From IMG/VR virus record IMGVR_UViG_3300004155_000002: 42,401 nucleotides of DNA; one strand, given 5' to 3'. This DNA is from a virus. Position 1 is the stretch's first letter, and each line of letters opens with the position of its first letter. A program made the position numbers and the translations under genes. A model generated the notes under the pieces. It saw only the letters and a list, made by a program, of their open reading frames with translations, did not search any database and was not told the DNA's origin. Positions 12,127 to 33,814 of the stretch are shown here, one piece after another.

Positions 12127-12133
12127 TTAAAAA

Positions 12134-12149
12134 GGGGGCACTCGCCCCC
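12134..12149 (+). terminator. GC hairpin just after the capsid gene (no clear U-tract)
   Basis: GGGGGC-actc-GCCCCC lies 8 nt after the capsid stop. Confidence 0.25.
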
Positions 12150-12180
12150 GTCCGTTCCTCCACAAAAAAGGATTTAAAAA

Positions 12181-12911: not shown

Positions 12912-12916
12912 GGTGA

Positions 12917-13803: not shown

Positions 13804-14330
13804 ATCTGAGCACACTTAGGGCGGCATGGTATGCATGGGCCGCTGCCAATTCTCAAGGGGCTCAGGTTGTGTGGGCAGATCAAGCGGCCCCTCATCCCGC
13901 CAGGCCGTTTGTCACCCTGAAACTCAACGGCCCATTTCGGGATATGGGCGCGGACGAGCTTCGCCACACCGCAACCGAGGGCGCTTTTGAATTGTGCGGG
14001 CACCGCCGCTTCGTTCTTTCAGTGCAAGTGCTAGGGACGGATGCCCCGAGCGCGCACGCGCTTGCCATTGCGCTCAATTCCTCCCTCGGCAAGCCCTCGG
14101 CACTCGCCACGCTTCGCCTTTCGGGGATCTCGGTTTCGGATGAGGGCGACATTCAAAACCTGACAACCTTTATGGCTACCCAATTCGAAGGGCGGTTCGC
14201 ATTTGACGCTACCTTTTTGGCAACCGAATCCTTGAGTGATACGCTGGGATCAGTTCGAACGGTGCAAATAATGGGGATGAACGACACGGCGTTGATTGGC
14301 GACCCGTTGCCGCCTCCCGAGGGGGATTGA
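13800..14330 (+). CDS. Tail terminator / completion-like protein
   Basis: ATGA overlap. Lies shortly upstream of the sheath gene. The N-terminus LRAAWYAWAAAN...RPFVTLKL resembles neck terminator proteins. Confidence 0.4.
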   Translation: MNLSTLRAAWYAWAAANSQGAQVVWADQAAPHPARPFVTLKLNGPFRDMGADELRHTATEGAFELCGHRRFVLSVQVLGTDAPSAHALAIALNSSLGKPSALATLRLSGISVSDEGDIQNLTTFMATQFEGRFAFDATFLATESLSDTLGSVRTVQIMGMNDTALIGDPLPPPEGD

Positions 14331-14997: not shown

Positions 14998-15018
14998 GTG
15001 AACCGAAGGGAGAATTTT

Positions 15019-17449: not shown

Positions 17450-19480
17450 ATGGCCACAGTTCGGGAATTGGTTGTCAGTTTTGGTTTCGATGTGGACGAT
17501 GCCCCGCTACAAAAAATGGAGCGGGGACTTGAGGAAATCAAAACCGGATTGCTTGCCATTGGCGCGGCGGCAGTAGGTGCGGCGGCGAGCCTTTTTGGGA
17601 TTGCGAAAAGCACAGCTGACGCTGCCGCTGCCATAAAAAACACCTCAATTGCTCTCGGCGTCAACTATGACTCCCTGCAGCGCTTAGGGTACGCCGCTCA
17701 AATGAGTGGGGCCAGCCAGGAAATGCTGGCCGATGGCTTGCGCTTTTTGTCTCGTGCTGCCATGGATACCGCCGATTCAAACTCGGAAGCGTCAAAGGCG
17801 TTTCGGGCGCTCGGGATTTCCGCCAGGGACGCAAGCGGCAAGCTACGAGCCCCCGATGCATTGCTCGTGTCCATGGCCGACGCTTTCAAAAAGCTACCGC
17901 CAGGGGCCGAAAAGAGCGCCATGGCAATGCAGTTTTTTGGCCGCTCGGGCAATCAACTGGTGCAATTTCTGAACCAGGGATCGGACGGAATAAGAGCGCT
18001 CGGGGCCGAGGCCGAATCGCTCGGGTTCATCATGGACGAGGCAGCCGTTGAGGCGGGGGCCGCTTTTAACGATGAGCTTGATAGGCTTTCAGGCGTGGCG
18101 AAAGGCATCGCGCGAAGCATCGGCACGGGACTCATTCCCGTTATAATGGATCTCATGGTGGCCGTCCGGCAATGGATTTTGTCTAACAGGGAAATTCTGA
18201 AATCAAGAATTCAAGCATTTGTCGAAGTGTTGAGCAAATTCCTGCAGCAATTATGGCGCGTGTCCATGGCTGTTTGGCAGGTATTCCGCGCGCTGGTGAT
18301 CGCCATTGACTCGGTTGCGAAATCGGTGGGCGGGTTTACAACCGTGTTATCCGTCCTTGCCGGCGTTATGGGACTCTTCGCCCTCGGGCGTTTGGGCATG
18401 GCAATTTTCGACGTGGCGAAGGGTTTCATTGCCATTGGGCGCGCGGCCGTTATGGCCTGGCGCTCGGCATTGCTCGGGCCAGTTTTGATTGGGGCCGCCA
18501 TCGTAGCGGCGTTTTTGGTGATCGAAGATTTCATCGCATTCCTTGACGGCCGCCCCTCGGTGTTGGGTTTCCTTCTTAAAAACAAGGATCAGATTCTCGA
18601 AAAACTTTTTCGTTGGTTCGAACGCGCGAAAGAGATCGGATACAAAGCCATCCGCGCCCTCACCGTGGGCTTCCTCGAATTATTTGGCATTCCTCGCCAG
18701 GAAGCCGAGCGGGCGTTTGACTCGTTTGCTAATGCCGTTGATGGAGCGGTAGATCTCGCAATCGCCGCATTGGTGCCGCTGGGAGAGTTTCTTTTGGCCG
18801 GTATAGGGCAAGCGCTTGACGGGCTCATTTTGCTCGCTCAGGGCGTGGCTGAGGCGTTTGTGGCCATCGCCACAGATCCCCGCCAGGCGCTCACGGATTT
18901 CGCTGCAACAATAGGCGATGTGGTCAGGGGAGCCTTTCTTTCGCTCTTTGATGTGGCGGTCGCCCTCAAGGATCGGCTCATGGGGGCGCTCGCTGGAATT
19001 GGGGAGGCGATCCTTGGGGCGTTTTCCAAAATCAAGGATGTGCTCGCGGGCGCGGTGCAAGCCGTGGCCGATTCATTTTTGAGCATGCTCGGGGCCATCG
19101 GGGAGAAAATCCGGGGGGCCATAATCGATCCCGTGAAGGGTGCCGTTGCGGACGCTTTCGGTTTCCTTCGGGGGAAATTCGGAACCCTCGCGGCCCGCCT
19201 CGGGATCGATCTCGGCTCGCCCGAGGCCGACGCGCAAACAGCGCTCGCTCAGGTTGCCAGCGTTGCGAGCTCGCCCTTCCCTGGAATCACACCGGCCGCC
19301 ACGGTCGGCCCCTCCCCTGCAGGCGGGGCGGTGACAATGGAGTCAACGATCAACGTGACCGTTCCCCCCGGTACCGACGCGGCGGGAGTGGGCGAAGCGG
19401 TGCGGCAGGCAGCGGCCGAGGAATTCCAAAAAATCCTGCGACCGGCAGCGCGGGCCACGGTTCCCGGCGTATTCTATTAG
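17450..19480 (+). CDS. Tail tape measure protein
   Basis: 676 aa, Ala/Gly/Leu-rich with hydrophobic central segments. TP901-type core LGYAAQMSGASQEMLADGLRFL...FGRSGNQLVQFL. Confidence 0.88.
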   Translation: MATVRELVVSFGFDVDDAPLQKMERGLEEIKTGLLAIGAAAVGAAASLFGIAKSTADAAAAIKNTSIALGVNYDSLQRLGYAAQMSGASQEMLADGLRFLSRAAMDTADSNSEASKAFRALGISARDASGKLRAPDALLVSMADAFKKLPPGAEKSAMAMQFFGRSGNQLVQFLNQGSDGIRALGAEAESLGFIMDEAAVEAGAAFNDELDRLSGVAKGIARSIGTGLIPVIMDLMVAVRQWILSNREILKSRIQAFVEVLSKFLQQLWRVSMAVWQVFRALVIAIDSVAKSVGGFTTVLSVLAGVMGLFALGRLGMAIFDVAKGFIAIGRAAVMAWRSALLGPVLIGAAIVAAFLVIEDFIAFLDGRPSVLGFLLKNKDQILEKLFRWFERAKEIGYKAIRALTVGFLELFGIPRQEAERAFDSFANAVDGAVDLAIAALVPLGEFLLAGIGQALDGLILLAQGVAEAFVAIATDPRQALTDFAATIGDVVRGAFLSLFDVAVALKDRLMGALAGIGEAILGAFSKIKDVLAGAVQAVADSFLSMLGAIGEKIRGAIIDPVKGAVADAFGFLRGKFGTLAARLGIDLGSPEADAQTALAQVASVASSPFPGITPAATVGPSPAGGAVTMESTINVTVPPGTDAAGVGEAVRQAAAEEFQKILRPAARATVPGVFY

Positions 19481-20059: not shown

Positions 20060-20383
20060 ATGGCCACGATACAAATCCCGCTCAGAAATGATCTCGACGC
20101 TTTTGATTTCAATGTGGCACTTGAGGGTCGCACCTTCAATTTCGAGGTGCAATGGAACACCCGCGCGGAGCAATGGAGTCTGATAGTCCGCAATGACTCT
20201 CAGGTTGAACTAGTGGGCGGCGTTCCCCTGGTTGTCAATTCAGATCTTCTCGGGCGATTTGTCAATGTTGCCCTCCCTCCCGGCGTGCTCATTTTGTTCG
20301 ACACTTCTGGACTCAATGCAGAGTGTGCAAAGGCGGATCTCGGAGTGCGGTGTGTCATGCTATATCAGGAGTCGGAAGCATGA
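20060..20383 (+). CDS. Baseplate plug-like protein
   Basis: 107 aa. FDFNVALEGRTFNFEVQWNTRAEQWSLIVRNDS resembles small plug proteins of simple myovirus baseplates, from memory. Confidence 0.45.
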   Translation: MATIQIPLRNDLDAFDFNVALEGRTFNFEVQWNTRAEQWSLIVRNDSQVELVGGVPLVVNSDLLGRFVNVALPPGVLILFDTSGLNAECAKADLGVRCVMLYQESEA

Positions 20384-21225
20384 GGCAATACATACGGGCG
20401 TGCCGGCTTCGAATCGGCTCAACTGGCATGCTAGAAAAAGAGTATCTTGGTTTTCGCGTTACCTTCAAGGTGGAAAAAAACCTTGAATCAAACCCAAACA
20501 CGGCGGCCATTTCCATCTACAATTTGAGCGACACTTCCCGCGCGAGAATTGAAATGAAGGATGCCATTTGTTCCCTTGATGTAGGGTACGGCGATGAGTT
20601 CGAACAGATCTTTTTTGGAACGATTGCGAAGGCATTCACCAAAAAGGTAGGGCCGGATCTCATAACAGAAATCGAATGTGGGGACGGGGAAAAGGCATAC
20701 CAGCAAGCGAAAATAGATCTCTCATTTCCTCCCGGCGCAACCATTCAGCAAGTATTGGATAAGGTGACTGCCAGCATGCGCGAAGTCACGAGCGGCGGTG
20801 TCACCTCGGTAAAAACCTTCCTTCTCAATCAATTCAAATCATTCGGCACGGGCGCGGTTTTTTCTGGATCTGCGAAGGACACGCTTGACTCCCTCACAAA
20901 AAGCGTTGGCCTTGAGTGGTCAATTCAGGATGGTGAAATCCAATTCCTGGAAACAAATACCGGCACGCAGGAAGAGCAATTTGTGGTCAATTCAAACACT
21001 GGCCTGATCGGATCGCCAGGAAAAATCAAGGCGGCGGCGGCCTCGGGCGACACCAACGGGATCACTTTTGATATGTTACTGCAGCCGAAACTCAGGCCGG
21101 GCCGACTCATTCAAATCGAGTCAGCGAATATTGCGGGAACCTACCGCGTGACTAAAATCAGTCACGAGGGAGACAATTTCGGTGGCACTTGGCTTACAAA
21201 ATGTGAGGGGTATCTGCCGCAATGA
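20380..21225 (+). CDS. Baseplate hub protein
   Basis: ATG 20380 overlaps the upstream stop (ATGA). Position and RVTFKVEKNLESNPNTAAISIYNLS motif. Trimmed from track ORF 20323-21225. Confidence 0.5.
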   Translation: MRQYIRACRLRIGSTGMLEKEYLGFRVTFKVEKNLESNPNTAAISIYNLSDTSRARIEMKDAICSLDVGYGDEFEQIFFGTIAKAFTKKVGPDLITEIECGDGEKAYQQAKIDLSFPPGATIQQVLDKVTASMREVTSGGVTSVKTFLLNQFKSFGTGAVFSGSAKDTLDSLTKSVGLEWSIQDGEIQFLETNTGTQEEQFVVNSNTGLIGSPGKIKAAAASGDTNGITFDMLLQPKLRPGRLIQIESANIAGTYRVTKISHEGDNFGGTWLTKCEGYLPQ

Positions 21226-21968
21226 CAACGGAAAACCCGACACTTCAGGCACTTCTGAAAAACGCAATCGAGGCGCGCTTAACCGATCTACATGTGGCAC
21301 TACCCGGCATTGTGCAAACCTATGACGCGGCGAAACAGACGGCCGACGTTCAACCAGCGCTACAAAAAAAGTACGCCGATAGCGCGGTGACAAATCTCCC
21401 CCTCATTTCCAACGTGCCGGTCTGCTTCCCGCGCTCGGGCGTGGGTTTCCTGCACTTCCCTTTGAAGCGTGGCGATCAGGTTTTGCTCGTGTTTGTCGAA
21501 CGCAGTGTTGATATTTTCCGGCAGCGTGGCGGCGTGGTTGATCCGGATGATTTCCGAAAGCATCATTTGTCAGATGCCATTGCCCTCCCTGGATTCTATC
21601 CGGACGCTGGCGCATTCGCTGGTGTGGACGGGCAAGCGGATCTGGTGAACGGTGCCGCAAAATTGACGCTCAAGGAAAGCGGGGAAATTCTCATGGGCGG
21701 GGCAACCAGCACGCCCGCCGAGAACGTGGTGCTAGGCAAAATCCTGCAGCAATACCTCAAGGATATTCACACACAATTGGCCGCAATCCTTGACGTGCTC
21801 ATTGCAGGCGATCATGTGATTGTCACCTCGCCCGGCAATCCTACGGCCCCGAATCCAGCCAAGGCATTGCTTTTGACCAACGCGAAGGTAGCGCTTGAAG
21901 CACTCAAGGCCAGTCCCATTAGTGACAGCGGGATTCTGTCTGATATTCTATTCACAGAAAAGGGGTGA
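21222..21968 (+). CDS. Baseplate central spike protein (Gp138 N-terminal / gpV-like)
   Basis: ATGA overlap. LPGIVQTYDAAKQTADVQPAL...VPVCFPRSG...GDQVLLVF matches the Gp138-like OB-fold pattern. Confidence 0.6.
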   Translation: MTTENPTLQALLKNAIEARLTDLHVALPGIVQTYDAAKQTADVQPALQKKYADSAVTNLPLISNVPVCFPRSGVGFLHFPLKRGDQVLLVFVERSVDIFRQRGGVVDPDDFRKHHLSDAIALPGFYPDAGAFAGVDGQADLVNGAAKLTLKESGEILMGGATSTPAENVVLGKILQQYLKDIHTQLAAILDVLIAGDHVIVTSPGNPTAPNPAKALLLTNAKVALEALKASPISDSGILSDILFTEKG

Positions 21969-21972
21969 GAAA

Positions 21973-22194
21973 ATGGCAATGACGGGCGCTGGCCTTTTTG
22001 CAGCGGTCAAAACGAAACTCGGGACGGCCCAAGACAGTGCCATTCAGGAGGCCGCTTTGAAGCCCATTTGTGAGGCGATCGTTGAATACATCACGGGGAA
22101 TGCAGCGGTGAGCGTATCGGTTCCCGCCGCAGGAATTCTAGCGCCGAACGGGCCATGTACGGGCTCGGCTTCGGGCACCGGCACCGTGGCTTAG
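21973..22194 (+). CDS. Hypothetical small baseplate-module protein (73 aa)
   Basis: ATG 21973 has GGGGTGAGAA upstream. Trimmed from track ORF 21895-22194. Confidence 0.45.
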   Translation: MAMTGAGLFAAVKTKLGTAQDSAIQEAALKPICEAIVEYITGNAAVSVSVPAAGILAPNGPCTGSASGTGTVA

Positions 22195-22202
22195 GAGGGC
22201 GC

Positions 22203-22559
22203 ATGGATCTGAAACTGGATTCTGTCACAAAAGATATTCAGATTGTGGACGGCGAGCCCGCTTTGACATCGGGAATTGACGCCATTCGCCAGCATTTACA
22301 AATGAGACTGAGCACATTTCGCGGAGAGTGGTTTATTGATCCCACGGTTGGCGTGCCATATTTTGACGATGTGTTCAAGAAAAACCCGGATCTCACGATC
22401 CTGAACGCTGTATTTACAAAGGCAATACTCGACACTCCGGGGGTGCTTTCTTTAAATACACTTTCATTTGACCTTCAGACAGACCGATCTCTTGTGGTCA
22501 CATTCCAGGCGACCACTACCGACGGCGTGTTGTCGTATTCTGGCCTGGTGGGAGTTTAA
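22203..22559 (+). CDS. Baseplate wedge protein (gpW/gp25-like)
   Basis: ATG 22203 has GGAGGG upstream. AIRQHLQMRLSTFRGEWFIDPTVGVPYF matches the W/gp25-type pattern. Confidence 0.6.
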   Translation: MDLKLDSVTKDIQIVDGEPALTSGIDAIRQHLQMRLSTFRGEWFIDPTVGVPYFDDVFKKNPDLTILNAVFTKAILDTPGVLSLNTLSFDLQTDRSLVVTFQATTTDGVLSYSGLVGV

Positions 22560-22561
22560 GC

Positions 22562-24058
22562 ATGACAGCATACGGGTTAACAGATACCGGCTTCATAAAG
22601 AAACGACAGCCAGAAATCAAAGCCGAACTAGAAATATCCTTCCGAACCCTTTTCGGCGCGGGTGTCAACCTTCTCCCAACGTCTATTTTCGGGCAAATTG
22701 TTGGAATATTTTCCGAGCGGGAAGCGCTACTCTGGGAACTTTTGGAAGACCTGTACAATTCCAATTTTCCCGATACCGCCAGCGGTGCGAGCCTTGACAA
22801 CGCCGTTGCCCTCACGGGAACCTCCCGCCTTCCTGCCACGTTTTCCTCGGTCACGGCTCGGGTGTTTGGAACCCTCGGCACACTCATACCAGCCAACTCG
22901 ATTTTTTCCGTGGTAGGCGTGCCCGCCAACCGCTTTGTTGCGCTGCAGTCGGGCACGGTTCACGCTGGTATCAATGAGGTTCAAACAATTTCATTCTCGG
23001 CAACGCCCGCCTCGGGCGCATGGCAGATCACGTTCGACGGCCAGGCCACGGCCTCCCTAGCATTCAACGCGAGCAACGGCACGATACAAACGGCGCTCAA
23101 TGCCTTGAGCAATTTGAGCGGCGTGGTTGTCTCGGGCTCATATTCTGGCGGCATTGTCTTAACCTTCGCAGGATCGGACGGCGAACAGGATCAGCCCCTT
23201 GTGACCATTTCGGCGAACACCCTGCAGGACGGTGGATCGGCCGCAATCACGGTAACGCCAGCGGAAACCCAAAAGGGATTCCTTCCGCATATCGATCTGG
23301 AATGCCGCGCGGAAACCACGGGGGCCGTAGCTGCAGCGGCGGGAACCTTGACCGTCATTGAAACCCCGCTTTTTGGCCTTGACAGCGTGACAAATTTGCT
23401 TGACGCGGTTGTGGGCAGGAATCGCGAAACGGACGCCGAGCTTCGCTTGCGACGGCTTGAATCCCTGCAGCGTGCGGGAACCTCAACGGTCAACGGGATC
23501 GTGACAACCATTCGACAGCTAACTGGCGTCGATACGGCGTTTGTTTTCGAGAACAACACCGATGTAACGGACGGTGACGGACGCCCGCCACACAGCTATG
23601 AAGTGTTCGTACAGGGCGGCACAAATCAAGAAATATTCGAGACAATATGGGAAACAAAACCCGCCGGAATTCAGACGTTCGGAAACCTCACCGGCAGCGT
23701 GATTGACTCTCAGGGATTTTCTCAGACGGTGAAATTCTCGCGGCCGAACGAGGTTTTGATCTACCTCGGAATTGAACTGGTAGTGAATACCGATCCGAGC
23801 GAACCGGGCGGCGTATATCCGACGAATGGTGACGATCTGGTGCGCGATGCCATTCTCGCATATGGCGCTGGTTTTGAAATCGGACAGGACGTGGTTTTGC
23901 CGCGTTTCTTCACGCCGATAAACACAATCCCCGGCATTGTCGAGATCGTCATAAAGGCGGACACCACACCAGCCCCCTCGGCCACATCAAACATTTCCAT
24001 TGACGGCACCGAGTACGCTCGGTTTGATGCCTCGCGGACAACGGTGGTGAGCGTATGA
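22562..24058 (+). CDS. Baseplate J-like protein
   Basis: 498 aa following the gpW-like gene. The N-terminus GFIKKRQPEIKAELEISFRTLFG...SIFGQIVGIFSEREALLWE is typical of gpJ/gp47 family proteins. Confidence 0.75.
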   Translation: MTAYGLTDTGFIKKRQPEIKAELEISFRTLFGAGVNLLPTSIFGQIVGIFSEREALLWELLEDLYNSNFPDTASGASLDNAVALTGTSRLPATFSSVTARVFGTLGTLIPANSIFSVVGVPANRFVALQSGTVHAGINEVQTISFSATPASGAWQITFDGQATASLAFNASNGTIQTALNALSNLSGVVVSGSYSGGIVLTFAGSDGEQDQPLVTISANTLQDGGSAAITVTPAETQKGFLPHIDLECRAETTGAVAAAAGTLTVIETPLFGLDSVTNLLDAVVGRNRETDAELRLRRLESLQRAGTSTVNGIVTTIRQLTGVDTAFVFENNTDVTDGDGRPPHSYEVFVQGGTNQEIFETIWETKPAGIQTFGNLTGSVIDSQGFSQTVKFSRPNEVLIYLGIELVVNTDPSEPGGVYPTNGDDLVRDAILAYGAGFEIGQDVVLPRFFTPINTIPGIVEIVIKADTTPAPSATSNISIDGTEYARFDASRTTVVSV

Positions 24059-24642
24059 CAATCACAAAAATCACCACACACCTCACCGATGCCATTGGGC
24101 GCATGTTGTATCAATTCCGGGGCCTCGCAGGGGCCGAGGGATTGGTTGGGATGCATGGAACGCAAGCTCAGGATGTAGAGGACGCGGGTTTTGATTTCCT
24201 CGCGAAACTACCGCTTCAGACCGCAACCGGGGCCGTGCTGGATCGTTGGGGCATAGTTCTTGATGAGCCCCGCAACGGCGCAACGGATGCCAACTATAGG
24301 GCGCTTTTGTTTTTCAAAGTCTCGAAAAATATTTCGAATGGAACGCCCGAGGAATTGATTTCGATCCTTCAGCAGTTGATGCAAGGAGACGCGGTTGAAT
24401 TTGTTGAGGACTTCCCCGCCGCGCTGCACATGACAATCATCAATCCGACGAACCCGGCAGATCCCGCCCTCATATTTTCGCAAATGCAACAAATGTGTCC
24501 GGCTGGTGTTCGGCTCAACTACCTCGCGGCCGGGTATTCGGATCACCCGTTCGCGTTTCTCGGCAATCCCAACCCGCAAGCATTAGGTTTCAGTTCGGCA
24601 CCAGGGGCCGATGATGGCGGCCAATTTGTTTCAATCCTATGA
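24055..24642 (+). CDS. Baseplate wedge / tail protein (DUF2612, gpI-like)
   Basis: ATGA overlap with the J-like gene. LDRWGIVLDEPRNGATDANYRALLFFKV matches the DUF2612 pattern, from memory. Confidence 0.55.
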   Translation: MTITKITTHLTDAIGRMLYQFRGLAGAEGLVGMHGTQAQDVEDAGFDFLAKLPLQTATGAVLDRWGIVLDEPRNGATDANYRALLFFKVSKNISNGTPEELISILQQLMQGDAVEFVEDFPAALHMTIINPTNPADPALIFSQMQQMCPAGVRLNYLAAGYSDHPFAFLGNPNPQALGFSSAPGADDGGQFVSIL

Positions 24643-24650
24643 GGTGAATC

Positions 24651-27263
24651 ATGACGGAAATTGCGAAACCAGCGGAACGCCCACGGTGGGCATCGGATGT
24701 CTCGGCGGACGTGATAACACCTTCGAGTGGAAAGCAGGATACGGGCTGGGTTCAAGAATATCCACCCCTCCAATATTTCAATTGGCTCGGAAAATACACC
24801 CATGAATGGCTCAACTACCTCGAAAGAAATACCGATGCCAGTCTCGGCGGCGGCGGTCCGATTGCGGGCGTGGCAATCAATGTGGGCGTCATTCTCCCCA
24901 CTACGGGTATCACGCCAGTTGACACCGAAGGGCTGGCGGCGACGGACGATCTTGCCGCAATCAATCCTTCGAACCTCGCCGAAGGTCGGATCTGTCTCAT
25001 TCATTCGGTCAATGCGGCGCGAGTTATCACTGTCAAACACATGAGCGGTGCGATCACGGGCCAGATCAACCTTCGCCTCGGTGCCGATATTGTGTTGGAC
25101 GATCCCAAAAAAGTGCTAGTGCTGGTGCGAAACGGCACACAATGGGATGAGCTTTTCGGGTTCCTCGGCAGCGATCCCGCGCCTTATTTGTCGGCTGATC
25201 TCGACGTACAGACGAAGAAAATCACCACGACTACGGTTGACGGGGACGTGATCATTGAACCCAACGGCACGGGTTCACTCTCGCCCCTCACCACAGGCAA
25301 GGCCCTCGGAAAATCAGCGCAACGGTGGAATGCCTTTTTGTCGGGCGCAAACGTGGCTGGCGATATTTCCGCCGAGGCGGACGGCACCAGGGATCTCGGT
25401 GCAACGGGGACGCGCTGGCGCGCGCTGTACACCGACAAGGTTTATGCAACGGATTGGGTTCATACGGGATACCTCGACTGCGAAACGCTTGGGGACACCC
25501 TGAATATCGGCGCAACAAACGCCTCGCTTATAAACATCGGGCGAACCGGCGCAACCATTGCGCTGTATGGCTCGATCACCGAGGTTCACACAACCAACAC
25601 ATATGTGACCGACAAACTTCTCACCCTCAATGATGGCGGTCTCGCCACCAGCGGCGACGGCGCGGGCATCGAAATCGAAGAAGGCGGATCGGCAACCGCG
25701 TATATCAAGGTTTCCTCCAATCGAAACAAATGGAGTTTCAAGGCCCCCAATGACGCGGCCGTGGTCAGCATTGGGTCCGAGGCGGCGGTTGTCGGTGATA
25801 TCGGTTTGGTATCTTCCGTTTTAACCTTTATGAGTACGGGATTCTCTTTCAAAAATTCAGCGGGTACGGTGATTGCTAGCGCCGTTGACGCGGGAGGCTG
25901 GACATTTGGCCCGAGCGGATATGCCGGTGCCCACACGATCCGTGGAAAAAATATGGAGGCGGCGAACGCTTTTGATGCCGCTTTAATTGTGACCGGCCAG
26001 GGAACGGGAACCATTCCGGGAGTCATTAGGTTTGGGTTCAATGAGACAACGGGACGAGGCGTAATCCGTGGCTACCGAAATGCCACGGCTGCAGGTGGTT
26101 GCGAGTTTCATTCGGGCACTGCTAACGTGGGTTTTCATGATGAAAACGGCGCATGGACGTGGGGGCCTCCCTCAAATACTCCATACACCACATATCACAC
26201 TGTATCAAAAAGCATTTTTGCACAAACCTCGGCGACCGCAAATGACTCTGACGGTGCCATAAGAATTGGAGCAAATACCTACCATGCATCGGGGGCACCG
26301 AGCCGGAAAACCGGGATAGGCGGCGCGAGTATTGGATTTTTTCCGCGAACGACAGACACGGCAAACAGCCTTATATTCTACAATAACTTGGCGGCGGACG
26401 GGGATGTAGCGGCGGGCGTAAACGGATCTGTCACGCAGGTAGGATCTTGGATTCTTGGGGCAATCAACTCATATGGGTTCCATATGACACCCGGTGATTG
26501 CCCGAATCAGATCACGGCAGTTCTAGCAAACTGCCGTCCTTCTGGCGGTGCCGATGGCCGTAGCTTTTCAACAAGGGCTGGCGGAGGTATTTTATGCCTT
26601 GCCGCGCTTACAAATAGCGCAAATTGTATAGAATTCCACGCCAATCAGGACGATGATGGGGTTGATACCGACGCGGATTTAATCGGGTTCGCTTTGCCAA
26701 CAGGAGCGTTTACCTTCGGGCCGTCTGCCGGTGCCGATGTGCAACATGTGTTTTTCTCAAGCAAAGCGGGCACGGGCATCGGCGATGCATTTGTCAACCT
26801 CAGATCTACTGGATCAGCGTCTAATCAGAAGTATTTGCAGTTTCAGCATAGTTCAACTACGGCAGCCGGTGGCATTCAGAGAAATGGCACGGGTTCGGAT
26901 TGGGTTGCATTTAGCGGTTCGGATAGGCGAATCAAAAAAGAAATCACCCCGCTTGAGTCCCAATGGAATAAGGTCAAAAGCATCAAGCTGTGTCGGTATC
27001 AGTTCAAGTATGGCGGCGAAGGTATCGGCCCAATTGCTCAGGAATTGAACGAGATCTACCCTGAAAAGGTGAACAAGTACGATGATGGCGCTGGCGAGGA
27101 CGTTCCTAAAGGCGTGCAGCCGTGGGAAATCACGCACGGTTGGTCATATGAAACGCTATCCGTTGTTCAAGAGTTAATGGGAAGGTGTGAGAATTATGAT
27201 TCAACAATTCGTTCCCTTCAGAGCACGGTGTCAAATCTAATGGCAAGGCTAGGTGCGTGTTAG
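24651..27263 (+). CDS. Tail fibre protein with a C-terminal intramolecular chaperone auto-processing (Peptidase S74-like) domain
   Basis: 870 aa, Gly/Thr/Ala/Asn-rich. From about 26919: SDRRIKKEITPLESQWNKVKSIKLCRYQFKY...GIGPIAQELNEIYPEKV, then a coiled-coil tail. Confidence 0.8.
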   Translation: MTEIAKPAERPRWASDVSADVITPSSGKQDTGWVQEYPPLQYFNWLGKYTHEWLNYLERNTDASLGGGGPIAGVAINVGVILPTTGITPVDTEGLAATDDLAAINPSNLAEGRICLIHSVNAARVITVKHMSGAITGQINLRLGADIVLDDPKKVLVLVRNGTQWDELFGFLGSDPAPYLSADLDVQTKKITTTTVDGDVIIEPNGTGSLSPLTTGKALGKSAQRWNAFLSGANVAGDISAEADGTRDLGATGTRWRALYTDKVYATDWVHTGYLDCETLGDTLNIGATNASLINIGRTGATIALYGSITEVHTTNTYVTDKLLTLNDGGLATSGDGAGIEIEEGGSATAYIKVSSNRNKWSFKAPNDAAVVSIGSEAAVVGDIGLVSSVLTFMSTGFSFKNSAGTVIASAVDAGGWTFGPSGYAGAHTIRGKNMEAANAFDAALIVTGQGTGTIPGVIRFGFNETTGRGVIRGYRNATAAGGCEFHSGTANVGFHDENGAWTWGPPSNTPYTTYHTVSKSIFAQTSATANDSDGAIRIGANTYHASGAPSRKTGIGGASIGFFPRTTDTANSLIFYNNLAADGDVAAGVNGSVTQVGSWILGAINSYGFHMTPGDCPNQITAVLANCRPSGGADGRSFSTRAGGGILCLAALTNSANCIEFHANQDDDGVDTDADLIGFALPTGAFTFGPSAGADVQHVFFSSKAGTGIGDAFVNLRSTGSASNQKYLQFQHSSTTAAGGIQRNGTGSDWVAFSGSDRRIKKEITPLESQWNKVKSIKLCRYQFKYGGEGIGPIAQELNEIYPEKVNKYDDGAGEDVPKGVQPWEITHGWSYETLSVVQELMGRCENYDSTIRSLQSTVSNLMARLGAC

Positions 27264-27994: not shown

Positions 27995-29590
27995 ATGCCA
28001 ACAAATGAAGCCTCTAAGGCGCACTTATGTGACCTATTTAATTCGGTCGCGGTGCGCGAATCCAGAAAATCAGAAGTGAAATACTACACGGACAAGTGCA
28101 TTGAAAACCGCGCAAAATACGAGGCATCGGGCGCGCCCCTCGGGGTTCCCTGGTATGTGGTTGGCATCATTGACGCGCTTGAAAATACGTTCGGCAATGG
28201 CTGGCTTGCGAATGGTGATCCCTTGACCGGCCCCACGGTGCGGGTTCCAATTGGCCTCGGGCGTGGGGAGAATTTCCCGATCTCGTGGGCGCGTGGTGCC
28301 GAGCTTTCAATGAAAAAAGACAACCTGCACGAGATCGCCGATTGGAGTCTCGGCAATCTTTTGTGGAGGGTAATGCTTTACAATGGCGACGGGTACATCG
28401 CGCGGGGCGTGGAAACTCCCTACCTTTGGTCATTTTGCACTCACTACACCAAGGGGAAATACGTCAAGGACGGCCCCGAAGGCTGGGATGCAAATGCCGT
28501 TTCTGAGCAATGTGGGGCCGCTGTTATCCTCTGGGAAATGGAACGGCGGGGCGTGATTGCGATCCCTCGTTCGCCAGGGGCAACGCCCGCGCGGTCGCCC
28601 GAGAATGTCGGCTGGCACAAATTGCAATTGATTGTAAACAACGTGCCCGAAACCATCCCGGCCGGGTTTCCCAAAATTGAAATCGGATTTATTGCAAAAC
28701 TTGCGGGCACAAATGACGACTACCGGCGCGCTCGTGTTGAGCTTCCCTCCGAATTCGTCAAGGCGTGGTTTTCTCAGTTTCCCAACGCGCACGACATCCG
28801 ATTCACCGATGAGCAAACGAAATGGCCCGGCGACCTGGCGGGAGGGGACGCGCCCCCGGCCCCCGAGATCCCGTTGCCAATGCGCCAGGGCGCGGCCGGC
28901 GCGGGTGTTTCCCGCTTGCAGGTTGAACTCAACCGAGCCATGGGAACCGGCATAGCGGTTGACGGTGATTTTGGCCCGGAAACGCTCGGCAGCGTGCGCG
29001 CCGTGCAAGCCCGCCTCGGCCTTCCGGCTACGGGCGTTGTGGATCTCCCAACGTGGGACGGGCTCAAAAAACTGCCCACGGCCGAAGCAACGGGGTTCTC
29101 GCGCTCCCGGCTGGCGGCAATTATGCAAGCCGAAGCCAACCAGGAAAATACCTGGAACGGAAACGGGCGGGCCAAAAAATACACCAAAAAATTTGAAGGC
29201 GTTTTTGGGAGCGCCCGATTTGCCTGGTGTGCCGCGTGTGTCACTTGGTGTTGCGAGCAAGCGGGGGCCAGGATGCCGGTGAGCGCACCTGGAACCGGGT
29301 ACACTTTTGCATTGGTGGAAGCATGGCAGCAATGGGCAATCGCTCGCGGATTTTGGCATGACGGCACGGCCGGCATTGCTCGCGGTGACATCGTGATTTT
29401 TGACTGGGACGGGGCCGACTATCCCGACCGGGATCAGGAAGATCACATCGGCGTTGCGCTCGCGGGCGAATCGGGCGGCTCGGTGTTGTGTGGGGAGGGC
29501 AATGTGTCCGACTCGACTGCTACGAAAACCCGCGCGAAGTCTCTCATTCAAGGCTACGTTCGTTTACCGGACGGGTTTCCTGGAGCCTGA
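27995..29590 (+). CDS. Endolysin: lysozyme-family (COG5526-like) N-domain + PG_binding_1 + CHAP
   Basis: N-domain GVPWYVVGIIDALENTF...LANGDPLTGPT...YNGDGY...PYLWS. Middle LQVELNRAMGTGIAVDGDFGPETLGSVRAVQARLGLPATGVVD. C-terminal CHAP-like FAWCAACVTWC ... DHIGVAL. Confidence 0.85.
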   Translation: MPTNEASKAHLCDLFNSVAVRESRKSEVKYYTDKCIENRAKYEASGAPLGVPWYVVGIIDALENTFGNGWLANGDPLTGPTVRVPIGLGRGENFPISWARGAELSMKKDNLHEIADWSLGNLLWRVMLYNGDGYIARGVETPYLWSFCTHYTKGKYVKDGPEGWDANAVSEQCGAAVILWEMERRGVIAIPRSPGATPARSPENVGWHKLQLIVNNVPETIPAGFPKIEIGFIAKLAGTNDDYRRARVELPSEFVKAWFSQFPNAHDIRFTDEQTKWPGDLAGGDAPPAPEIPLPMRQGAAGAGVSRLQVELNRAMGTGIAVDGDFGPETLGSVRAVQARLGLPATGVVDLPTWDGLKKLPTAEATGFSRSRLAAIMQAEANQENTWNGNGRAKKYTKKFEGVFGSARFAWCAACVTWCCEQAGARMPVSAPGTGYTFALVEAWQQWAIARGFWHDGTAGIARGDIVIFDWDGADYPDRDQEDHIGVALAGESGGSVLCGEGNVSDSTATKTRAKSLIQGYVRLPDGFPGA

Positions 29591-29785
29591 TTATTCCTTG
29601 AGGGCGGCCATAATGCGGGGAGCTTCCTCGGTCGCAACCTGAACGATGAGTGCCACGCCTTCGGTGACATCGATGTCCCGAGCCTCGGCCATGATGGCCC
29701 CAGCCTTCTTTGCGAGCTTGATGCCATCGCACACAATTCCAACGGCCGAGTGAATTCCTGCTTTCAAATTGTCAATTCCAATCAT
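29591..29785 (-). CDS. Hypothetical 64-aa protein, convergent with the endolysin and divergent from the 29.9-33.2 kb module
   Basis: GAGGTG lies 4 nt upstream of the ATG. Its stop abuts the endolysin stop with zero spacer. No family recognised. Confidence 0.5.
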   Translation of the reverse strand: MIGIDNLKAGIHSAVGIVCDGIKLAKKAGAIMAEARDIDVTEGVALIVQVATEEAPRIMAALKE

Positions 29786-29890
29786 GTATCACCTCGTGAG
29801 TGTTGCGTGCCAGACACCTGCCATGGACACGGCGCGGTGAGCGCACTACTATCATATCTGAAGCGCAACAAAAACCGCAAGGGGAAACAC

Positions 29891-30163
29891 ATGCCATCCC
29901 TCACCGTCAACCTTACCGACACATTCAAAAAAATCATCGAATTCAAAAACTATTCTGTCCTTTATTTCAACCTGGAGGTGGAAAACTTTGAAGGCCCATT
30001 TTTGGAGTTCACTTTTGGAAACCCAAACGAGGGAGCAGGGATTGAATTAAGGGTTCCTAATCAGTGTTCCCTCACCCGAGACGGACGGCCGTTAGCGGGT
30101 GTTTTGTGGGGGCGTTGCCAAACCCCTGGCAGTACCGCTGTCATTCAACTCATGATATGGTGA
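29891..30163 (+). CDS. Unknown-function module protein A (90 aa, beta-rich)
   Basis: ATG 29891 has GGGGAA upstream. Trimmed from track ORF 29750-30163. Confidence 0.55.
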   Translation: MPSLTVNLTDTFKKIIEFKNYSVLYFNLEVENFEGPFLEFTFGNPNEGAGIELRVPNQCSLTRDGRPLAGVLWGRCQTPGSTAVIQLMIW

Positions 30164-30167
30164 TGCC

Positions 30168-30665
30168 ATGAGTTCAATAACGACCAGGAAAACTACAGCC
30201 AGTGTCGCGGTTACGGACGCCGATGTTATTCTAATCGACGATCACGGCCATCGGGTCGAGATCACCGAATCCGGATCTCTGAAGGTAGCCGGAGAATTCA
30301 CGGCAACTTCCGAACCGGGAACCGTTCGGAATATTTTCGGAGAAGCGTTATCCGTTTTGGATGGGATTGAAACTACCGTTTTGCAGTTCGTGGTTTCTGC
30401 CGACACGGAATTGGCGCTTTTGCGAATTGAAACGGGAGGTGATAAGATCGCCAGGTATAGCGTGTTAATAGACAGTGTCTTGGTTGCTCGTCAGAGAACG
30501 TGGTTTAATGGATCTGGGTTGGTTGCGTGTTTTGATTTCTCGGCTCAGGATAAACGAGGTTTCGTTATTTCAGCAGGCCAAGAAGTCAAGGTAAATGTGC
30601 TTCATTCTAGATCCGGACATGGTGATTTTGAGGCAAGGGTTATCGCAATTCAAAAGGATTTATAA
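30168..30665 (+). CDS. Unknown-function module protein B (165 aa, beta-sandwich-like)
   Basis: Tightly packed after A. Alternating hydrophobic pattern. Tail ...GQEVKVNVLHSRSGHGDFEARVIAIQ resembles the C-terminus of protein D. Confidence 0.6.
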   Translation: MSSITTRKTTASVAVTDADVILIDDHGHRVEITESGSLKVAGEFTATSEPGTVRNIFGEALSVLDGIETTVLQFVVSADTELALLRIETGGDKIARYSVLIDSVLVARQRTWFNGSGLVACFDFSAQDKRGFVISAGQEVKVNVLHSRSGHGDFEARVIAIQKDL

Positions 30666-30666
30666 C

Positions 30667-30882
30667 ATGAGTTTAGCTAGTAACTTGGAGATCAAACGAA
30701 AGCAAGTAACGCTTTCGCGTTTGCAGGCCGGCGCAATGGAGATCGAGCTTTCCATTGATGAGGCTATGGCAAATATTGAAAGACTCGAGAAAAATATCAG
30801 TACAAATAAAGAAAAACAAATCGAAATAGCAGCAGAAATCGAAGCGTTGAAAAATGGCACACTTGTGCCTATCGGCCAGTAA
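30667..30882 (+). CDS. Unknown-function module protein C (71 aa, coiled coil)
   Basis: ATG 30667 lies 2 nt after the B stop. Heptad-like IELSIDEAMANIERLEKNISTNKEKQIEIAAEIEALK. Confidence 0.55.
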   Translation: MSLASNLEIKRKQVTLSRLQAGAMEIELSIDEAMANIERLEKNISTNKEKQIEIAAEIEALKNGTLVPIGQ

Positions 30883-30906
30883 CACTATTTTTGGGGGGAG
30901 AGAATC

Positions 30907-31665
30907 ATGGGAGTTGATTATCCTAGCAGTTTGCCCGTTCGCACCGAAATCGACGCGGATGAAAGGATACAGTCAAAAACCGTTGACTATACCAATCCTA
31001 CGCAAGGCATGACCGTTGATACCGATGGAAATGCACATTCCGAAGTCCATGGTAACAACCCTGCCGGAAGCGATGAAGTACTCGCGCTGTCGGAATTGGG
31101 TCGCGTGAATTCTGACGGTGTGTATGATGCTACCAATAACACCAAGCCCGCGCACGCTGGCCTCATTGGCCATACTCGCGGCGCTACTCCGGTGGACGCC
31201 GATTGTGGAAAGCGGATCACTGCTATCACATCGGGCACCGTGCATGCATTGGATGTCGCAATTAGGGACGAGGATGGCAACGCCTACTCGAATTCTAATC
31301 CCCTTCCTGTGGCACCTGGCCCCATTGCCGGCACCCGTATCCATGACTACGACACGGAAGCCGACGCCGAAAAAGACACGCCGTCGAACCATGACTACAC
31401 CGTGGCCGGGACTGCGCTAGATCTGTATAAGATCGAAGCATCCTGCTCAGGAAAGGCGAAATTTGTGCTGCAGATTTCCCTTGACGGCACATCATTCTTG
31501 CCGGTGGGCGTGAAATTCAACTCGACCGCCAACCCTAATGTGTCGTGGGATTTCGGCGAGGTGCCAATATCGGTGCCCGTGGCCGGCGTTGTTCGCCTTA
31601 TCAGGACTAACAAGGACAACGGCGACAGCGACCTGTACAGCACTATCATTGGCGTCAAGGCATAA
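30907..31665 (+). CDS. Unknown-function module protein D (252 aa, beta-rich)
   Basis: Strong RBS GGGGGAGAG. Repeated D-x-DGN motifs (VDTDGNAHSEV, IRDEDGNAYSN). The C-terminal domain is similar in pattern to B. Confidence 0.65.
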   Translation: MGVDYPSSLPVRTEIDADERIQSKTVDYTNPTQGMTVDTDGNAHSEVHGNNPAGSDEVLALSELGRVNSDGVYDATNNTKPAHAGLIGHTRGATPVDADCGKRITAITSGTVHALDVAIRDEDGNAYSNSNPLPVAPGPIAGTRIHDYDTEADAEKDTPSNHDYTVAGTALDLYKIEASCSGKAKFVLQISLDGTSFLPVGVKFNSTANPNVSWDFGEVPISVPVAGVVRLIRTNKDNGDSDLYSTIIGVKA

Positions 31666-31701
31666 GCCAACAATGCCGCAACCGCAAAGTACGCGGCGGG
31701 C

Positions 31702-31732
31702 CGCCAGGGGATTCCCTTGGCGTTTTTTTTTT
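31702..31732 (+). terminator. Strong intrinsic terminator inside the unknown-function module
   Basis: 9-bp stem CGCCAGGGG/CCCTTGGCG (one G-U pair), 3-nt loop, then a run of 10 T (31723-31732). Confidence 0.7.
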
Positions 31733-31743
31733 CAGGGGGAACC

Positions 31744-32142
31744 ATGGGGGATCTAGGTCAATTGGAGGCCGCTGAATTCGTGGCGGTCGTGGGATCGGAC
31801 TCGGTTGGAAATGAAACCAACCCGGTCAATGCCACATCGAAAGGTGAAATCAGATCGGCAGAAATGCTAAGATCTGGGGGCAGCCAGGCGTCAAAATCAA
31901 TGCTTGCAAACACCCCAATTCGCGCGGCCGTGGGATCAAGTAACCTTCCCGGTCGGAAATTCCTCACCGTGTTTGCCGAAACTGGAAAGGTATTTTGGGG
32001 GTTCACTTCTGCAGTGACCGTATCCACCGGGTTTCCAATCGAAAAGGATGCCCCGGCAAGCGTGTTTGCTTCAGGCGATGACTGTGATATTTGGTTGGTA
32101 TCGTCCGCAACCGCAACGGTGAGAATTGGGGAGTCACCATGA
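31744..32142 (+). CDS. Unknown-function module protein E (132 aa, beta-rich)
   Basis: ATG 31744 has GGGGGAA upstream. Trimmed from track ORF 31717-32142, whose first codons lie in the terminator T-run. Confidence 0.55.
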   Translation: MGDLGQLEAAEFVAVVGSDSVGNETNPVNATSKGEIRSAEMLRSGGSQASKSMLANTPIRAAVGSSNLPGRKFLTVFAETGKVFWGFTSAVTVSTGFPIEKDAPASVFASGDDCDIWLVSSATATVRIGESP

Positions 32143-32627
32143 ACCTTGTTCAACAATTCCAAGTTGCTCAATCGGTGCCGTTTGAATCGGCAGGCTTTGC
32201 CTCCCAAAATGTACGCGATGCCATTGTTGAGGCAAGGAATACTGCCGAGGGAAAGCCACGTTTCACCCTCGGCTTATCCAATAATGGAACGGTGGGAAAT
32301 GGCGCATGGATCGGATTCTCGGAATTGCTTTCGAGCCCGAGAATCCTTTTCCCACTCCCGGCAACAATCAAGGAATTTTCTTTTGTCAATTCCAATGTGA
32401 ACCTCGGCGCGTTTAATTTCGAATTCTACAAAAACGGACAACTTGCGGGCAACCTCATTGCAACCTATGTAGCGCCAGCCGGGGATCGCACTGCCGGATA
32501 CGGTTTTTTTGTTTTTTCTAGTCCGCTTTCCTTCGCTGCCGGTGATAGCATTTTTATAAAAAATGTGCGGCCATCCGGTACGGCACTATCAGATCTTGCG
32601 CTGACTTTGTATGCACAATCTAATTGA
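32139..32627 (+). CDS. Unknown-function module protein F (162 aa, jelly-roll-like pattern)
   Basis: ATGA overlap with E. FSFVNSNVNLGAFNFEFYKNGQLAGNLIATYVAP...GDSIFIKNVRPSG. Confidence 0.6.
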   Translation: MNLVQQFQVAQSVPFESAGFASQNVRDAIVEARNTAEGKPRFTLGLSNNGTVGNGAWIGFSELLSSPRILFPLPATIKEFSFVNSNVNLGAFNFEFYKNGQLAGNLIATYVAPAGDRTAGYGFFVFSSPLSFAAGDSIFIKNVRPSGTALSDLALTLYAQSN

Positions 32628-32637
32628 GGGGAAAACT

Positions 32638-33243
32638 ATGAACGTAGCGGCTCAGATTCAAAACCAAGTCAAGGTGCTTATGAGTGACTTGAACGAGCTA
32701 AATAATGCGGCTCAACAAACACAAAAATCATATTGGGCAACCGATGCTAATGTGAAGGTCGCCGCCGTGGCCGATTCCGCAACCCCGGTAACAGTTTCAA
32801 GCCGACTCACTAAGGCCCAATTTCTAGCAGGCGTAGGGCTTTGCGAACAGATTGGTAAATTTTTCGCGAACCAGGCAACAAGCCAGGCCGACAATTGCGC
32901 GACCATGCTGTCACTGCATATAGGAAACGACGCGGCATCTGCCGTGCTTTCCGAAGCTACCGAACACGTTGGCAATAACATGGTCAATCTTTGCGAGACT
33001 CTTATATCAATTCATAAGAAGTCCAGAGAATTGATTGCAGTCTATTGGGGGGCCGAATTGGGCGCGGCCGTTGCCGCTATTTCCGATTCTACGATTGTTT
33101 TTGGGGGCAATGTTACAAAATCTCAGATTTTGTCTGCGGTAACACTCATGGATAACCTGAATAAATTTTGTGAAAACTCACAGGCTGCCACGGCAGACTA
33201 TGGCGCAACCATTGCAAAATGGGCGATTGTCCCGCTAGTTTGA
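32638..33243 (+). CDS. Unknown-function module protein G (201 aa, helical, internally duplicated)
   Basis: ATG 32638 has GAGGGG upstream. Two related halves each start YW... and contain (L/V)TK(A/S)Q(F/I)L ... (GK/NK)F(F/C)(A/E)N. Confidence 0.6.
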   Translation: MNVAAQIQNQVKVLMSDLNELNNAAQQTQKSYWATDANVKVAAVADSATPVTVSSRLTKAQFLAGVGLCEQIGKFFANQATSQADNCATMLSLHIGNDAASAVLSEATEHVGNNMVNLCETLISIHKKSRELIAVYWGAELGAAVAAISDSTIVFGGNVTKSQILSAVTLMDNLNKFCENSQAATADYGATIAKWAIVPLV

Positions 33244-33251: not shown

Positions 33252-33578
33252 TCAGAGTGAATCATTCTCGAAATCAATCGCGCGGATCAAGGCATCATCG
33301 ATCTTGATTTCCACCAGAGCATCCCTCCCCCTGGCGAGTGGGGGGAGAATCTTTTTCAGAAAATGCGGGGGCAGTTTGATAAGCCGTTTTTTGCTTGCGG
33401 CGTGCCCACCAGTTTCATCGAAATCATCCCGGTGGGCCTTGAGTTTCACTTTGCCGCCGCTCACCGAATCAACCTCGTCGATCAGGCATGCGTGTTGCGT
33501 CCGCTTGCCGGCGCGTGGGTCGGAATAGATCACCACGCCCACATTGTCACCGCGTTTCAGTTTTGGTTTTTTGGCCAT
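33252..33578 (-). CDS. Hypothetical protein (108 aa)
   Basis: ATG 33578 has GGGAGGG 4 nt upstream. Trimmed from track ORF 33252-33752. Lys-rich N-terminus, then a beta-like KRGDNVGVVIYSDPRAGKRTQHACLIDEVD. Confidence 0.5.
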   Translation of the reverse strand: MAKKPKLKRGDNVGVVIYSDPRAGKRTQHACLIDEVDSVSGGKVKLKAHRDDFDETGGHAASKKRLIKLPPHFLKKILPPLARGRDALVEIKIDDALIRAIDFENDSL

Positions 33579-33784
33579 GTCGCCCTCCCGAGGGGATGCT
33601 CGGCGGTGAGAAGCAACGATCGGAGTTTGTTGTGAACGCCTATTTGCCCGCCGAGCCCCTACATTATGCCCGTCCTGGCAGTCTGGCGTCAACCCGGTTG
33701 ATTTTCTGTCGTGGTCAGTGCAGGCTTCCCCAGTGAATGGACGCACTTCCAAATCACACGCGAGACATGGTTTTGTCGCAGTCT

Positions 33785-33814
33785 GCCGAGCCCCCCGTGG
33801 GTTCGGCTTTTTTT
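33785..33814 (+). terminator. Strong + strand intrinsic terminator in an otherwise gene-free 355-bp gap
   Basis: 9-bp stem GCCGAGCCC/GGGTTCGGC (one G-U pair), 5-nt loop, then 7 T (33808-33814). Confidence 0.65.

Follow-up and report, generated by a model that had tools for sequence, protein, structure and literature searches.

This report concerns a block of genes in a stretch of viral DNA of 42,401 nucleotides (IMG/VR record IMGVR_UViG_3300004155_000002), which was analysed as a whole and is called the window below. Judging by its gene content, the window is the genome of a phage of about 42 kb with a contractile tail. Past its lysin gene lie seven genes on the + strand, designated A to G, and one small gene on the other strand, X. 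An earlier note, made from the sequence alone, had described the seven as equal members of a module of unknown function in a slot for accessory (moron) genes. This framing is not supported, since the core of the block, B-C-D-E with or without F, is old, widely shared and usually found inside head-morphogenesis operons of unrelated phages. The reading favoured here, to which we give about an even chance, is that these genes code for an accessory complex on the virion surface, a fibre or a decoration, that carries exchangeable adhesin tips.

The genes of the block and their products

Calling of open reading frames (ORFs) recovered all seven + strand genes (29891-33243) that the earlier note had listed. 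A purine-rich, Shine-Dalgarno-like sequence precedes every start, in agreement with the good ribosome-binding sites (RBSs) claimed for them, and the 64-aa ORF on the minus strand is equally real, its stop codon directly abutting the lysin stop at 29590. The block is indeed AT-richer than its surroundings, with 49.7% GC compared with 54.5% in the window, and a hand count of 52/120 G+C for 30661-30780 proved exact. In typical genes, the G+C content at third codon positions (GC3) is 0.59-0.65; A, B, C, F and G fall below this, at 0.43-0.53, and D is typical in this respect (0.60). The proteins were said to be unrecognisable, and this is borne out for A, B, D, E, F and G, none of which has a Pfam match at E<=1 or a significant PHROGs match. 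Protein C has sub-threshold Pfam matches and a single PHROGs match of weight, to phrog_1193, annotated as 'hemolysin' (E 4.7e-5). As had been supposed, no transmembrane segments are present (the maximum 19-residue Kyte-Doolittle mean across the block proteins is 1.34), and neither signal peptides nor enzyme motifs were found by Pfam and hydropathy.

The most conserved protein of the cassette is D. The AlphaFold2 (AF2) models of D and F are predictions of monomers, that of D being derived from an alignment of 51 sequences. In the model of D, residues 143-252 form a jelly roll, with its eight or so strands in place and a predicted local distance difference test (pLDDT) score above 93, while the N-terminal ~140 residues are highly conserved, extended and modelled with low confidence. 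B proved to be a paralogue of D: residues 20-162 of B align with residues 117-251 of D in a profile-profile comparison of non-overlapping sequence sets (probability 97.5%, E 9e-12). The beta-sandwich folds guessed at in the earlier note are thus supported for D and F by the AF2 models and for B by homology to the jelly roll of D. The length of B falls into classes, from 118 to 319 aa, that track the phage lineage, and the long forms carry added N-terminal segments with repeated DGSINV/NPLPV-like motifs.

When the D model was compared with the PDB using Foldseek, the matches were generic and comprised the HFTV1 turret, peptidylglycine monooxygenase (PHM), small plant-virus coat proteins and nucleoplasmin-type jelly rolls. 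Among predicted viral structures, tail-fibre proteins and collagen-repeat proteins or knobs were matched. The PHM matches and conserved His and Asp residues brought up the idea that D is a cupin- or monooxygenase-like enzyme. This was rejected as a lead, because the jelly roll holds only one conserved His and the fold matches are generic.

The N-terminal part of D can be viewed in the light of another locus, L060, which encodes a 556-aa protein (L060:1620-3290) in which the N-terminal unit of D, of some 110-140 residues, is repeated four times in tandem ahead of an E-type C-terminal domain. A 333-aa F-type protein with long Gly-rich stretches follows it. The fusion shows that the N-terminal unit of D can act as a repeatable element of a shaft and that the D and E parts belong to one structure; the pair at L060 would then be a natural 'long' version of the appendage. 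No internal repeat was found within the N-terminal part of D in the window.

Protein C is the short coiled coil that the earlier note had predicted. A single clean heptad register extends over residues 5-63 without a proline, with an a/d occupancy of 65% as opposed to 14% elsewhere, and 45 homologues share this register uninterrupted. The match to phrog_1193, which is of the XhlA type, covers residues 19-64 and therefore the coiled-coil part only, and the Pfam XhlA family was not matched. XhlA proteins have a C-terminal transmembrane segment; no such segment was detected in C, whose maximum 19-residue hydropathy is 0.75.

The proteins encoded right after D share a tag rather than a body. It was found that 45 of 52 distinct proteins at this position start with a conserved tag of about 25 residues (MADLtdxqasqxvKIvGsdxxGxE), behind which stand unrelated bodies of up to 1044 aa in total protein length, one of them with a sub-threshold match to discoidin (F5/8 type C). 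A search with the single sequence of E returned four close relatives only, and profile searches gave no relative in the PDB, Pfam or PHROGs. The next protein, F, is modelled as a helix followed by a TNF/C1q-like jelly-roll knob (pLDDT 85.6). Its Foldseek matches include ExsFA/BxpB, 4-1BBL/CD40L/TRAIL and C1q domains, which agree in theme but are marginal in score (E 3.5e-4 to 6e-3, TM-score 0.35-0.54). The best TM-score was obtained with the tail fibre of phage 7-7-1 (9rkv, TMq 0.54), and the CBD of the short fibre of A-1(L) was matched as well. None of the 52 homologues of F that were found is annotated, and the long ones carry Gly-rich stretches.

Protein G corresponds to the protein that the earlier note described as helical and internally duplicated, and its duplication was confirmed by hhalign. 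The family comprises 100 cluster representatives of about 200 aa and has no relative in the PDB or PHROGs. Its gene lies directly downstream of F at L067, L071-73, L075 and L076 and near B-C-D at L066, and the independent phages that carry it include some that have genes of the E and F types and lack B, C and D. From this distribution, G belongs with F rather than with the whole block, and it is probably a partner of F, acting as an assembly factor or linker. A candidate equivalent, a protein of about 215 aa (c2) that follows F in other phages, was ruled out (hhalign probability 0.1%).

Between D and E lies a hairpin that is the best + strand terminator-like site within 27-35.5 kb. It is identical in L006, one of the closest relatives described below; in another, L008, whose D is 55% identical, a different stem is followed by U9. 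A stable hairpin was present after D in 8/8 distinct loci with a gap of >=35 nucleotides at that place. The hairpin is probably an attenuator that sets the expression of B-C-D above that of E-F-G, which would mean a larger output of D and its partners than of E, F and G. It also splits the block into B-C-D and E-F-G, the two sub-units that occur apart in other phages. The strong terminator is located inside the block and not at its borders. A promoter-like site upstream of A matches at 9/12 positions, which is no better than expected from shuffled sequences.

Genes A and X stand outside this core. Homologues of A, a beta-rich protein, were found only at L006, L008, L009 and L013 (59-70% identity), and a relation between A and the small proteins that precede B elsewhere was looked for and not found. 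The GC phasing of X (0.63/0.38/0.62) is coding-like. No homologue of X was detected in 65 related loci, and in the closest relatives its place is taken by a + strand gene for a protein of 104-113 aa.

Distribution and genomic position of the cassette

Scans of IMG/VR with D returned 60 loci, in which ORFs were called mechanically and compared using iterated profiles. B-C-D-E, with or without F, is collinear in about 54 distinct loci of metagenomic phages, all of them found with D as the only query. Almost all loci have B, C and D side by side in this order, B being upstream of C-D, and an E-type protein is encoded after D. F follows E in about a third of the loci, and A and G were found, among the D loci, in the window lineage only.

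Two phage-sized metagenome contigs, L006 and L008 (= L013), have the baseplate genes of the window and the same order of genes after the lysin; in L006, all seven genes also have the same sizes. Compared with L006, the proteins A-G are 70-90% identical, those of the baseplate 60-72%, the tail fibre 59% over the part that can be aligned, and the lysin 31%. The DNA of the block shows 75% identity, and that from the fibre to the lysis genes does not align. Gene order and identities together indicate that the seven genes are passed on as one unit, which counts among the best-conserved parts of the late region. With a conservation above that of the baseplate, tail fibre and lysin, the block cannot be regarded as a variable accessory slot. 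The co-inheritance that the earlier note had suggested checking is thus observed, the genes being kept in order in L006 and L008/L009/L013 rather than scattered. Likewise, the sporadic presence among close relatives that marks morons is not seen, as all of these contigs carry the block; another moron trait, an atypical base composition, is seen in the GC and GC3 of the module, D excepted.

In a large protein collection, 694 homologues of D were found. Among the best 120 of the 694, identities are about 46-59% except for three close relatives, nearly all measure 244-263 aa, and neither a Pfam domain nor an informative name occurs among them. In cellular genomes, a search of 185,579 species representatives gave one match, on a 3.2-kb contig of a metagenome-assembled genome, so D is no common prophage gene. 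A tblastn search of cultured phages (~50,000 records) found no D, long-form B, 364-aa c9 protein, F or G, the exception being one weak match to D in an uncultured 595-kb phage. Sequence-profile searches of the PDB starting from D, F, G and E brought up no credible match (F gave antibody light chains, E >0.01). The earlier note had allowed that profile searches might place the proteins in known tail-fibre or assembly families. No profile of Pfam or PHROGs did so: the long relatives returned only noise, and no significant match to curated fibre, receptor-binding protein or fibre-chaperone families was obtained for the block proteins or these relatives.

To describe the genomic position, neighbouring cluster representatives were labelled with PHROGs, and the nearest labelled gene within six genes upstream was recorded for the 50 distinct D loci that had upstream data. 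This gene encodes the major head protein at 22 of the 50 loci, a portal at 4, a head protease at 4, a tail sheath at 3 and a lysin, as in the window lineage, at 2; at the remaining 15, no upstream gene was labelled. The cassette is nearly always co-directional with the neighbouring morphogenesis genes. At L022 and L035 it is directly preceded by tail-fibre genes, as in the window, where lysis genes intervene, and at L002, L025 and L029 it comes after sheath and tube genes. The capsid genes of the carriers belong to different PHROG families (264 in the window, and 1357, 267, 212, 10 and 14242), while D stays about 50% identical. Such a variable position within the virion-morphogenesis region points to a self-contained unit without a fixed place in the assembly gene order.

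Several variants of the cassette were encountered. In many other phages it continues after F with the beta-rich c2 protein and then a protein of about 165 aa belonging to c12, c16 or c28, which are one family by hhalign. This family shows SH...CSE motifs and weakly resembles Peptidase_C92, a permuted papain-like amidase (best E 1.6e-4, short of the Pfam cut-off). The two genes were seen at L003, L025 (L025:10638-11144), L027, L035, L037, L056 (L056:10361-10870) and others; homology comparison revealed no counterpart of c2, K or c12/c16/c28 in the window. At L010/L011/L023, on a 187-kb contig, a 502-aa DUF7487 protein replaces the E-type gene after D (L010:10823-12331). It has a weak match to REase_MTES_1575 and a paralogue ~6 kb upstream (about 3149-4633), and has the look of a selfish element of the endonuclease type inserted into the cassette. 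On the myophage contigs L071-L074 (e.g. L072), several E-type genes, F and G stand between capsid and sheath genes without B, C or D, which shows that the E-F-G part can exist without the jelly-roll pair.

Proposed role and alternative explanations

Since the window already has a complete set of head, connector, tail, baseplate and fibre genes, genes A-G are extras. Several features argue for an exposed appendage: paralogous jelly rolls, a repeatable shaft, a coiled coil, knobs of the TNF/C1q type, fixed tags on bodies of variable length, a helper-like protein tied to one knob, and a location in late structural operons. A complex of this kind might be built as follows. B, whose N-terminal part varies by lineage, would anchor the complex to the particle as a base or adaptor. 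D, a probable trimer with N-terminal arms that would fold only in the oligomer, would form an abundant shaft and knob, and C would link parts by its coiled coil or help in assembly. E and F would be exchangeable adhesin tips at the distal end, docked by their N-terminal tags, with G as a chaperone or partner of F, and the terminator after D would keep B-C-D more abundant than E-F-G. The likely role of such a complex would be reversible adhesion to glycans of the host surface or the environment before the tail binds.

A structural role overall, whether on the capsid, neck or tail, is considered fairly probable. As for the site, attachment at the capsid or neck is slightly favoured, given the proximity to capsid genes, the differing capsid families of the carriers and the high copy number implied for D. 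The arrangement after the tail fibre in the window, together with the resemblance of F to fibre tips, instead favours attachment to the tail. The corresponding alternative, that the cassette encodes accessory tail or neck fibres (side fibres, collar or whiskers) on the baseplate or neck and not on the capsid, is judged unlikely, though it draws on several observations: the cassette follows tail-fibre genes in the window lineage, L022 and L035 and sheath and tube genes in L002, L025 and L029, the best TM-score of F is to the 7-7-1 tail fibre, and the viral fold matches of D include tail-fibre proteins. However, head genes form the context at 30 of the 35 labelled loci, and a common dock on the tail is harder to picture when the carriers have unrelated capsid families and at least two tail-sheath families. 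The terminator after D also suggests a high copy number, which would be easier to reconcile with a capsid decoration than with a fibre of 18 copies at most.

The location in head-assembly operons, beside protease, scaffold and capsid genes, could be expected of proteins that act during morphogenesis (scaffold-like, chaperone or maturation factors) and are missing from the finished particle. G, which is more helper-like than structural, and the papain-like protein that ends the cassette elsewhere, which could process something, would fit this explanation especially well. Nevertheless, the phage of the window has a protease or scaffold of its own (phrog_530) and a complete head module, and TNF/C1q-like knobs, variable bodies on a fixed tag and tandem shafts are features of exposed fibres, so that this explanation seems quite improbable. 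A similarly small chance is given to a non-structural moron set for host takeover, superinfection exclusion or anti-defence. It would account for the position after the lysis genes in the window, the GC and GC3 below the genome average and the lack of annotation. Non-structural readings, the lysis-associated one below included, rest on position and composition in one genome, and the pattern of conservation speaks against them: the core is collinear in dozens of unrelated phages, inside structural operons and co-directional with them, and every relative of the window has the block, whose conservation exceeds that of the baseplate genes. Moreover, transmembrane or signal sequences suited to exclusion at the envelope are absent, and there is no evidence for a promoter of its own. 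Of the roles that the earlier note had offered, accessory fibre or receptor binding is therefore the one that is retained; host takeover, exclusion and anti-defence found no positive support in the searches made, which did not extend to the PADLOC library. Finally, the hemolysin match of C, the place after the lysin in the window lineage and the weakly Peptidase_C92-like gene at the end of other cassettes could point to a lysis-associated set, in which C would be an XhlA-like 'hemolysin' next to a lysin or papain-like amidase. Given that C lacks a transmembrane segment, that most carriers have the cassette well away from any lysis gene, and that the lysin is the least conserved neighbour, swapping domains between relatives while the cassette is stable, this is the most remote of the explanations and is considered highly improbable.

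The accessory fibre or decoration complex also has several points against it. So far, none of the cassette proteins is known from a virion; among cultured phages, no carrier of D, long-form B, c9, F or G was found, and no solved structure is a sequence relative. The folds by themselves do not prove a fibre, as the Foldseek matches are weak (E 1e-4 to 1e-3, TM-score 0.3-0.54) and jelly rolls are common. An identity of ~50% for D across very different phages would be unusual for a protein fitting different capsids, and could mean an enzymatic or host-directed function. In addition, the window genes come after the lysis genes and have a lower GC3 than the rest of the genome, and a structural model leaves unexplained the weakly Peptidase_C92-like protein that often ends the cassette elsewhere.

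A stronger version of the proposal, which we regard as possible but somewhat doubtful, is that the cassette is a portable, self-contained appendage kit moved between unrelated lineages of tailed phages, with B as the adapter, D as the universal shaft and knob, and E and F as adhesins that can be swapped. Environmental phages would in that case widely possess a second organelle for adsorption, probably borne on the capsid and built from single jelly-roll proteins like the capsid and spike proteins of non-tailed viruses. Independently of this, the analysis defines a conserved cassette of viral dark matter and gives seven hypothetical proteins testable roles. Should the cassette be a surface adhesin system with tagged tips, the prediction of host range and adsorption would be affected for many uncultured phages, and the combination of tag and knob would provide a natural docking scheme for the display of proteins on phage particles.

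The phage genome and comparison with known systems

The features of the window are collected in Table 1. PHROGs also labelled a head morphogenesis protein, a probable tube protein and a RecT/exonuclease pair encoded on the opposite strand. No DNA match to the block or to the first 25 kb of the window was found among GenBank phages, and the best identity of the terminase is 46%, which makes this a phage without a close cultured relative. Neither tRNA genes nor Rfam families at the gathering threshold were detected in the window (1-42401).

Table 1. Genes and other features of the window, with the block and its flanks first.
Feature	Position	Strand	Length (aa)	Remarks
ORF X	29591-29785	-	64	RBS GAGGTGA; coding plausible, outside the conserved module
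Gene A	29891-30163	+	90	Beta-rich; lineage-specific, precedes the cassette
Gene B	30168-30665	+	165	Single jelly roll, D paralogue; profile match to D
Gene C	30667-30882	+	71	Short coiled coil; always between B and D (53 loci)
Gene D	30907-31665	+	252	N-terminal 'shaft' unit ~1-140, C-terminal jelly-roll knob 143-252
Terminator-like hairpin	31702-31732	+		9 bp stem with 7 G-C pairs, then U10; between D and E
Gene E	31744-32142	+	132	Conserved N-terminal tag, small variable C-terminal domain
Gene F	32139-32627	+	162	Conserved N-terminal peptide and helix (PVAxSxPF...NVQxAIEEA), jelly-roll knob
Gene G	32638-33243	+	201	Two ~100-aa repeats (hhalign 99.4%)
ORF H	33252-33752	-	166	Convergent with the block
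Terminator-like hairpins	33325-33347, 33785-33807	+		Convergent zone past the block
Large terminase	3627-5069			PHROG match
Portal	5073-7004			PHROG match
Protease or scaffold	8941-10095			PHROG match (phrog_530)
Virion structural protein	10140-11159		339	phrog_563; directly upstream of the major head protein
Major head protein	11176-12126			PHROG family 264
GC hairpin	12127-12155			Perfect, GGGGGC-ACTC-GCCCCC; directly past the major head protein stop
Adaptor, Neck1 and tail-terminator proteins	12567-14330			PHROG match
Sheath	14998-16320			PHROG match
Tape measure	17450-19480			PHROG match
Baseplate	20323-24642			PHROG match
Tail fibre	24651-27263		870	PHROG match
Lysin	27995-29590		531	PG_binding_1 and CHAP (Pfam)

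Some of these features deserve a comment. The phrog_563 protein may be the phage's own capsid accessory protein, which bears on the idea of A-G as a second decoration. The GC hairpin past the major head protein is no canonical + strand terminator, as an A-run precedes it and no U-run follows; it may be an RNA-stability element or a minus-strand terminator. In the lysin, an unannotated N-terminal region of ~270 aa precedes PG_binding_1 and CHAP. Its counterpart in L008 (L008:7224-8570) has Glucosaminidase and Amidase_2 instead, and that in L006 is the 31% identical protein mentioned above, so the lysin domains appear to swap rapidly beside a stable cassette. ORF H, beyond G, is conserved in L006 and L008 for the C-terminal ~110 aa only, which suggests that its true start is well inside the 166-aa ORF. 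Beyond ORF H, the relatives encode an SNF2-family helicase that the window lacks at that position, an indication that the early region is exchanged.

Accessory fibres and decorations are a known kind of system; the present multi-protein cassette is undescribed, and no member of it has been studied. Capsid turrets, head fibres and trimeric fibre tips would be the nearest described systems in function. The classical decorations and fibres of phage heads, such as phi29 gp8.5, T4 Hoc and lambda gpD, are dispensable, are often encoded beside the major capsid gene and serve in stabilisation or adhesion. They consist of one or two proteins, whereas the cassette is larger and is also found away from head genes, and searches of Pfam, PHROGs and PDB profiles gave no sequence match to decoration families (gpD, Soc, Hoc, Dec or turret). 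At the vertex of PRD1, the penton P31 and the spike P5 share a homologous domain, and the virion spike is built by two paralogous jelly-roll proteins, of which one forms the base and the other has a shaft and TNF-like knob. For B and D this is a mechanistic analogy only, and PRD1 differs in being tailless and membrane-containing with a double-jelly-roll capsid.

The turret of Haloferax tailed virus 1 (HFTV1; 8qpg), a capsid decoration of two tiers, combines a hexamer of the small, beta-rich base protein gp30 on an HK97-fold capsid with a trimeric, glycan-binding head of gp31, and has been proposed to give a reversible first attachment (10.1101/2024.12.09.627619). Its chain TD (114 aa) is the top PDB fold match of D (E 1.5e-4). 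However, the match is weak (TM-score 0.27/0.47) and there is no sequence similarity to D. The turret is made of two proteins and sits on the capsid, whereas the cassette has five to seven, with a coiled coil and tagged exchangeable tips, and only its genes place it near the capsid.

Among fibre tips, the long tail fibre of Agrobacterium phage 7-7-1 ends in a 'triple jelly roll domain' (PMC12796354). In its model, F combines a helix with a jelly-roll knob, and its fold matches include this fibre (9rkv) and the short-fibre CBD of cyanophage A-1(L) (8ke9); F has only 162 aa, no shaft of its own and no sequence relation to annotated fibre families. In the exosporium of Bacillus, N-terminal peptides dock onto a TNF-like anchor. 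The exosporium proteins ExsFA/BxpB (7r1m, 8d02, 9h3d) gave the best Foldseek E-value of F (3.5e-4, with 21-23% identity over ~120 columns), and the title of 9h3d describes an ExsF exosporium-anchoring complex with an F-Anchor N-terminal peptide. ExsFA/BxpB is a spore protein that resembles F at the level of fold only, and is best taken as a mechanistic analogy: the tags of E and F might be held by a knob of the cassette in much the same way.

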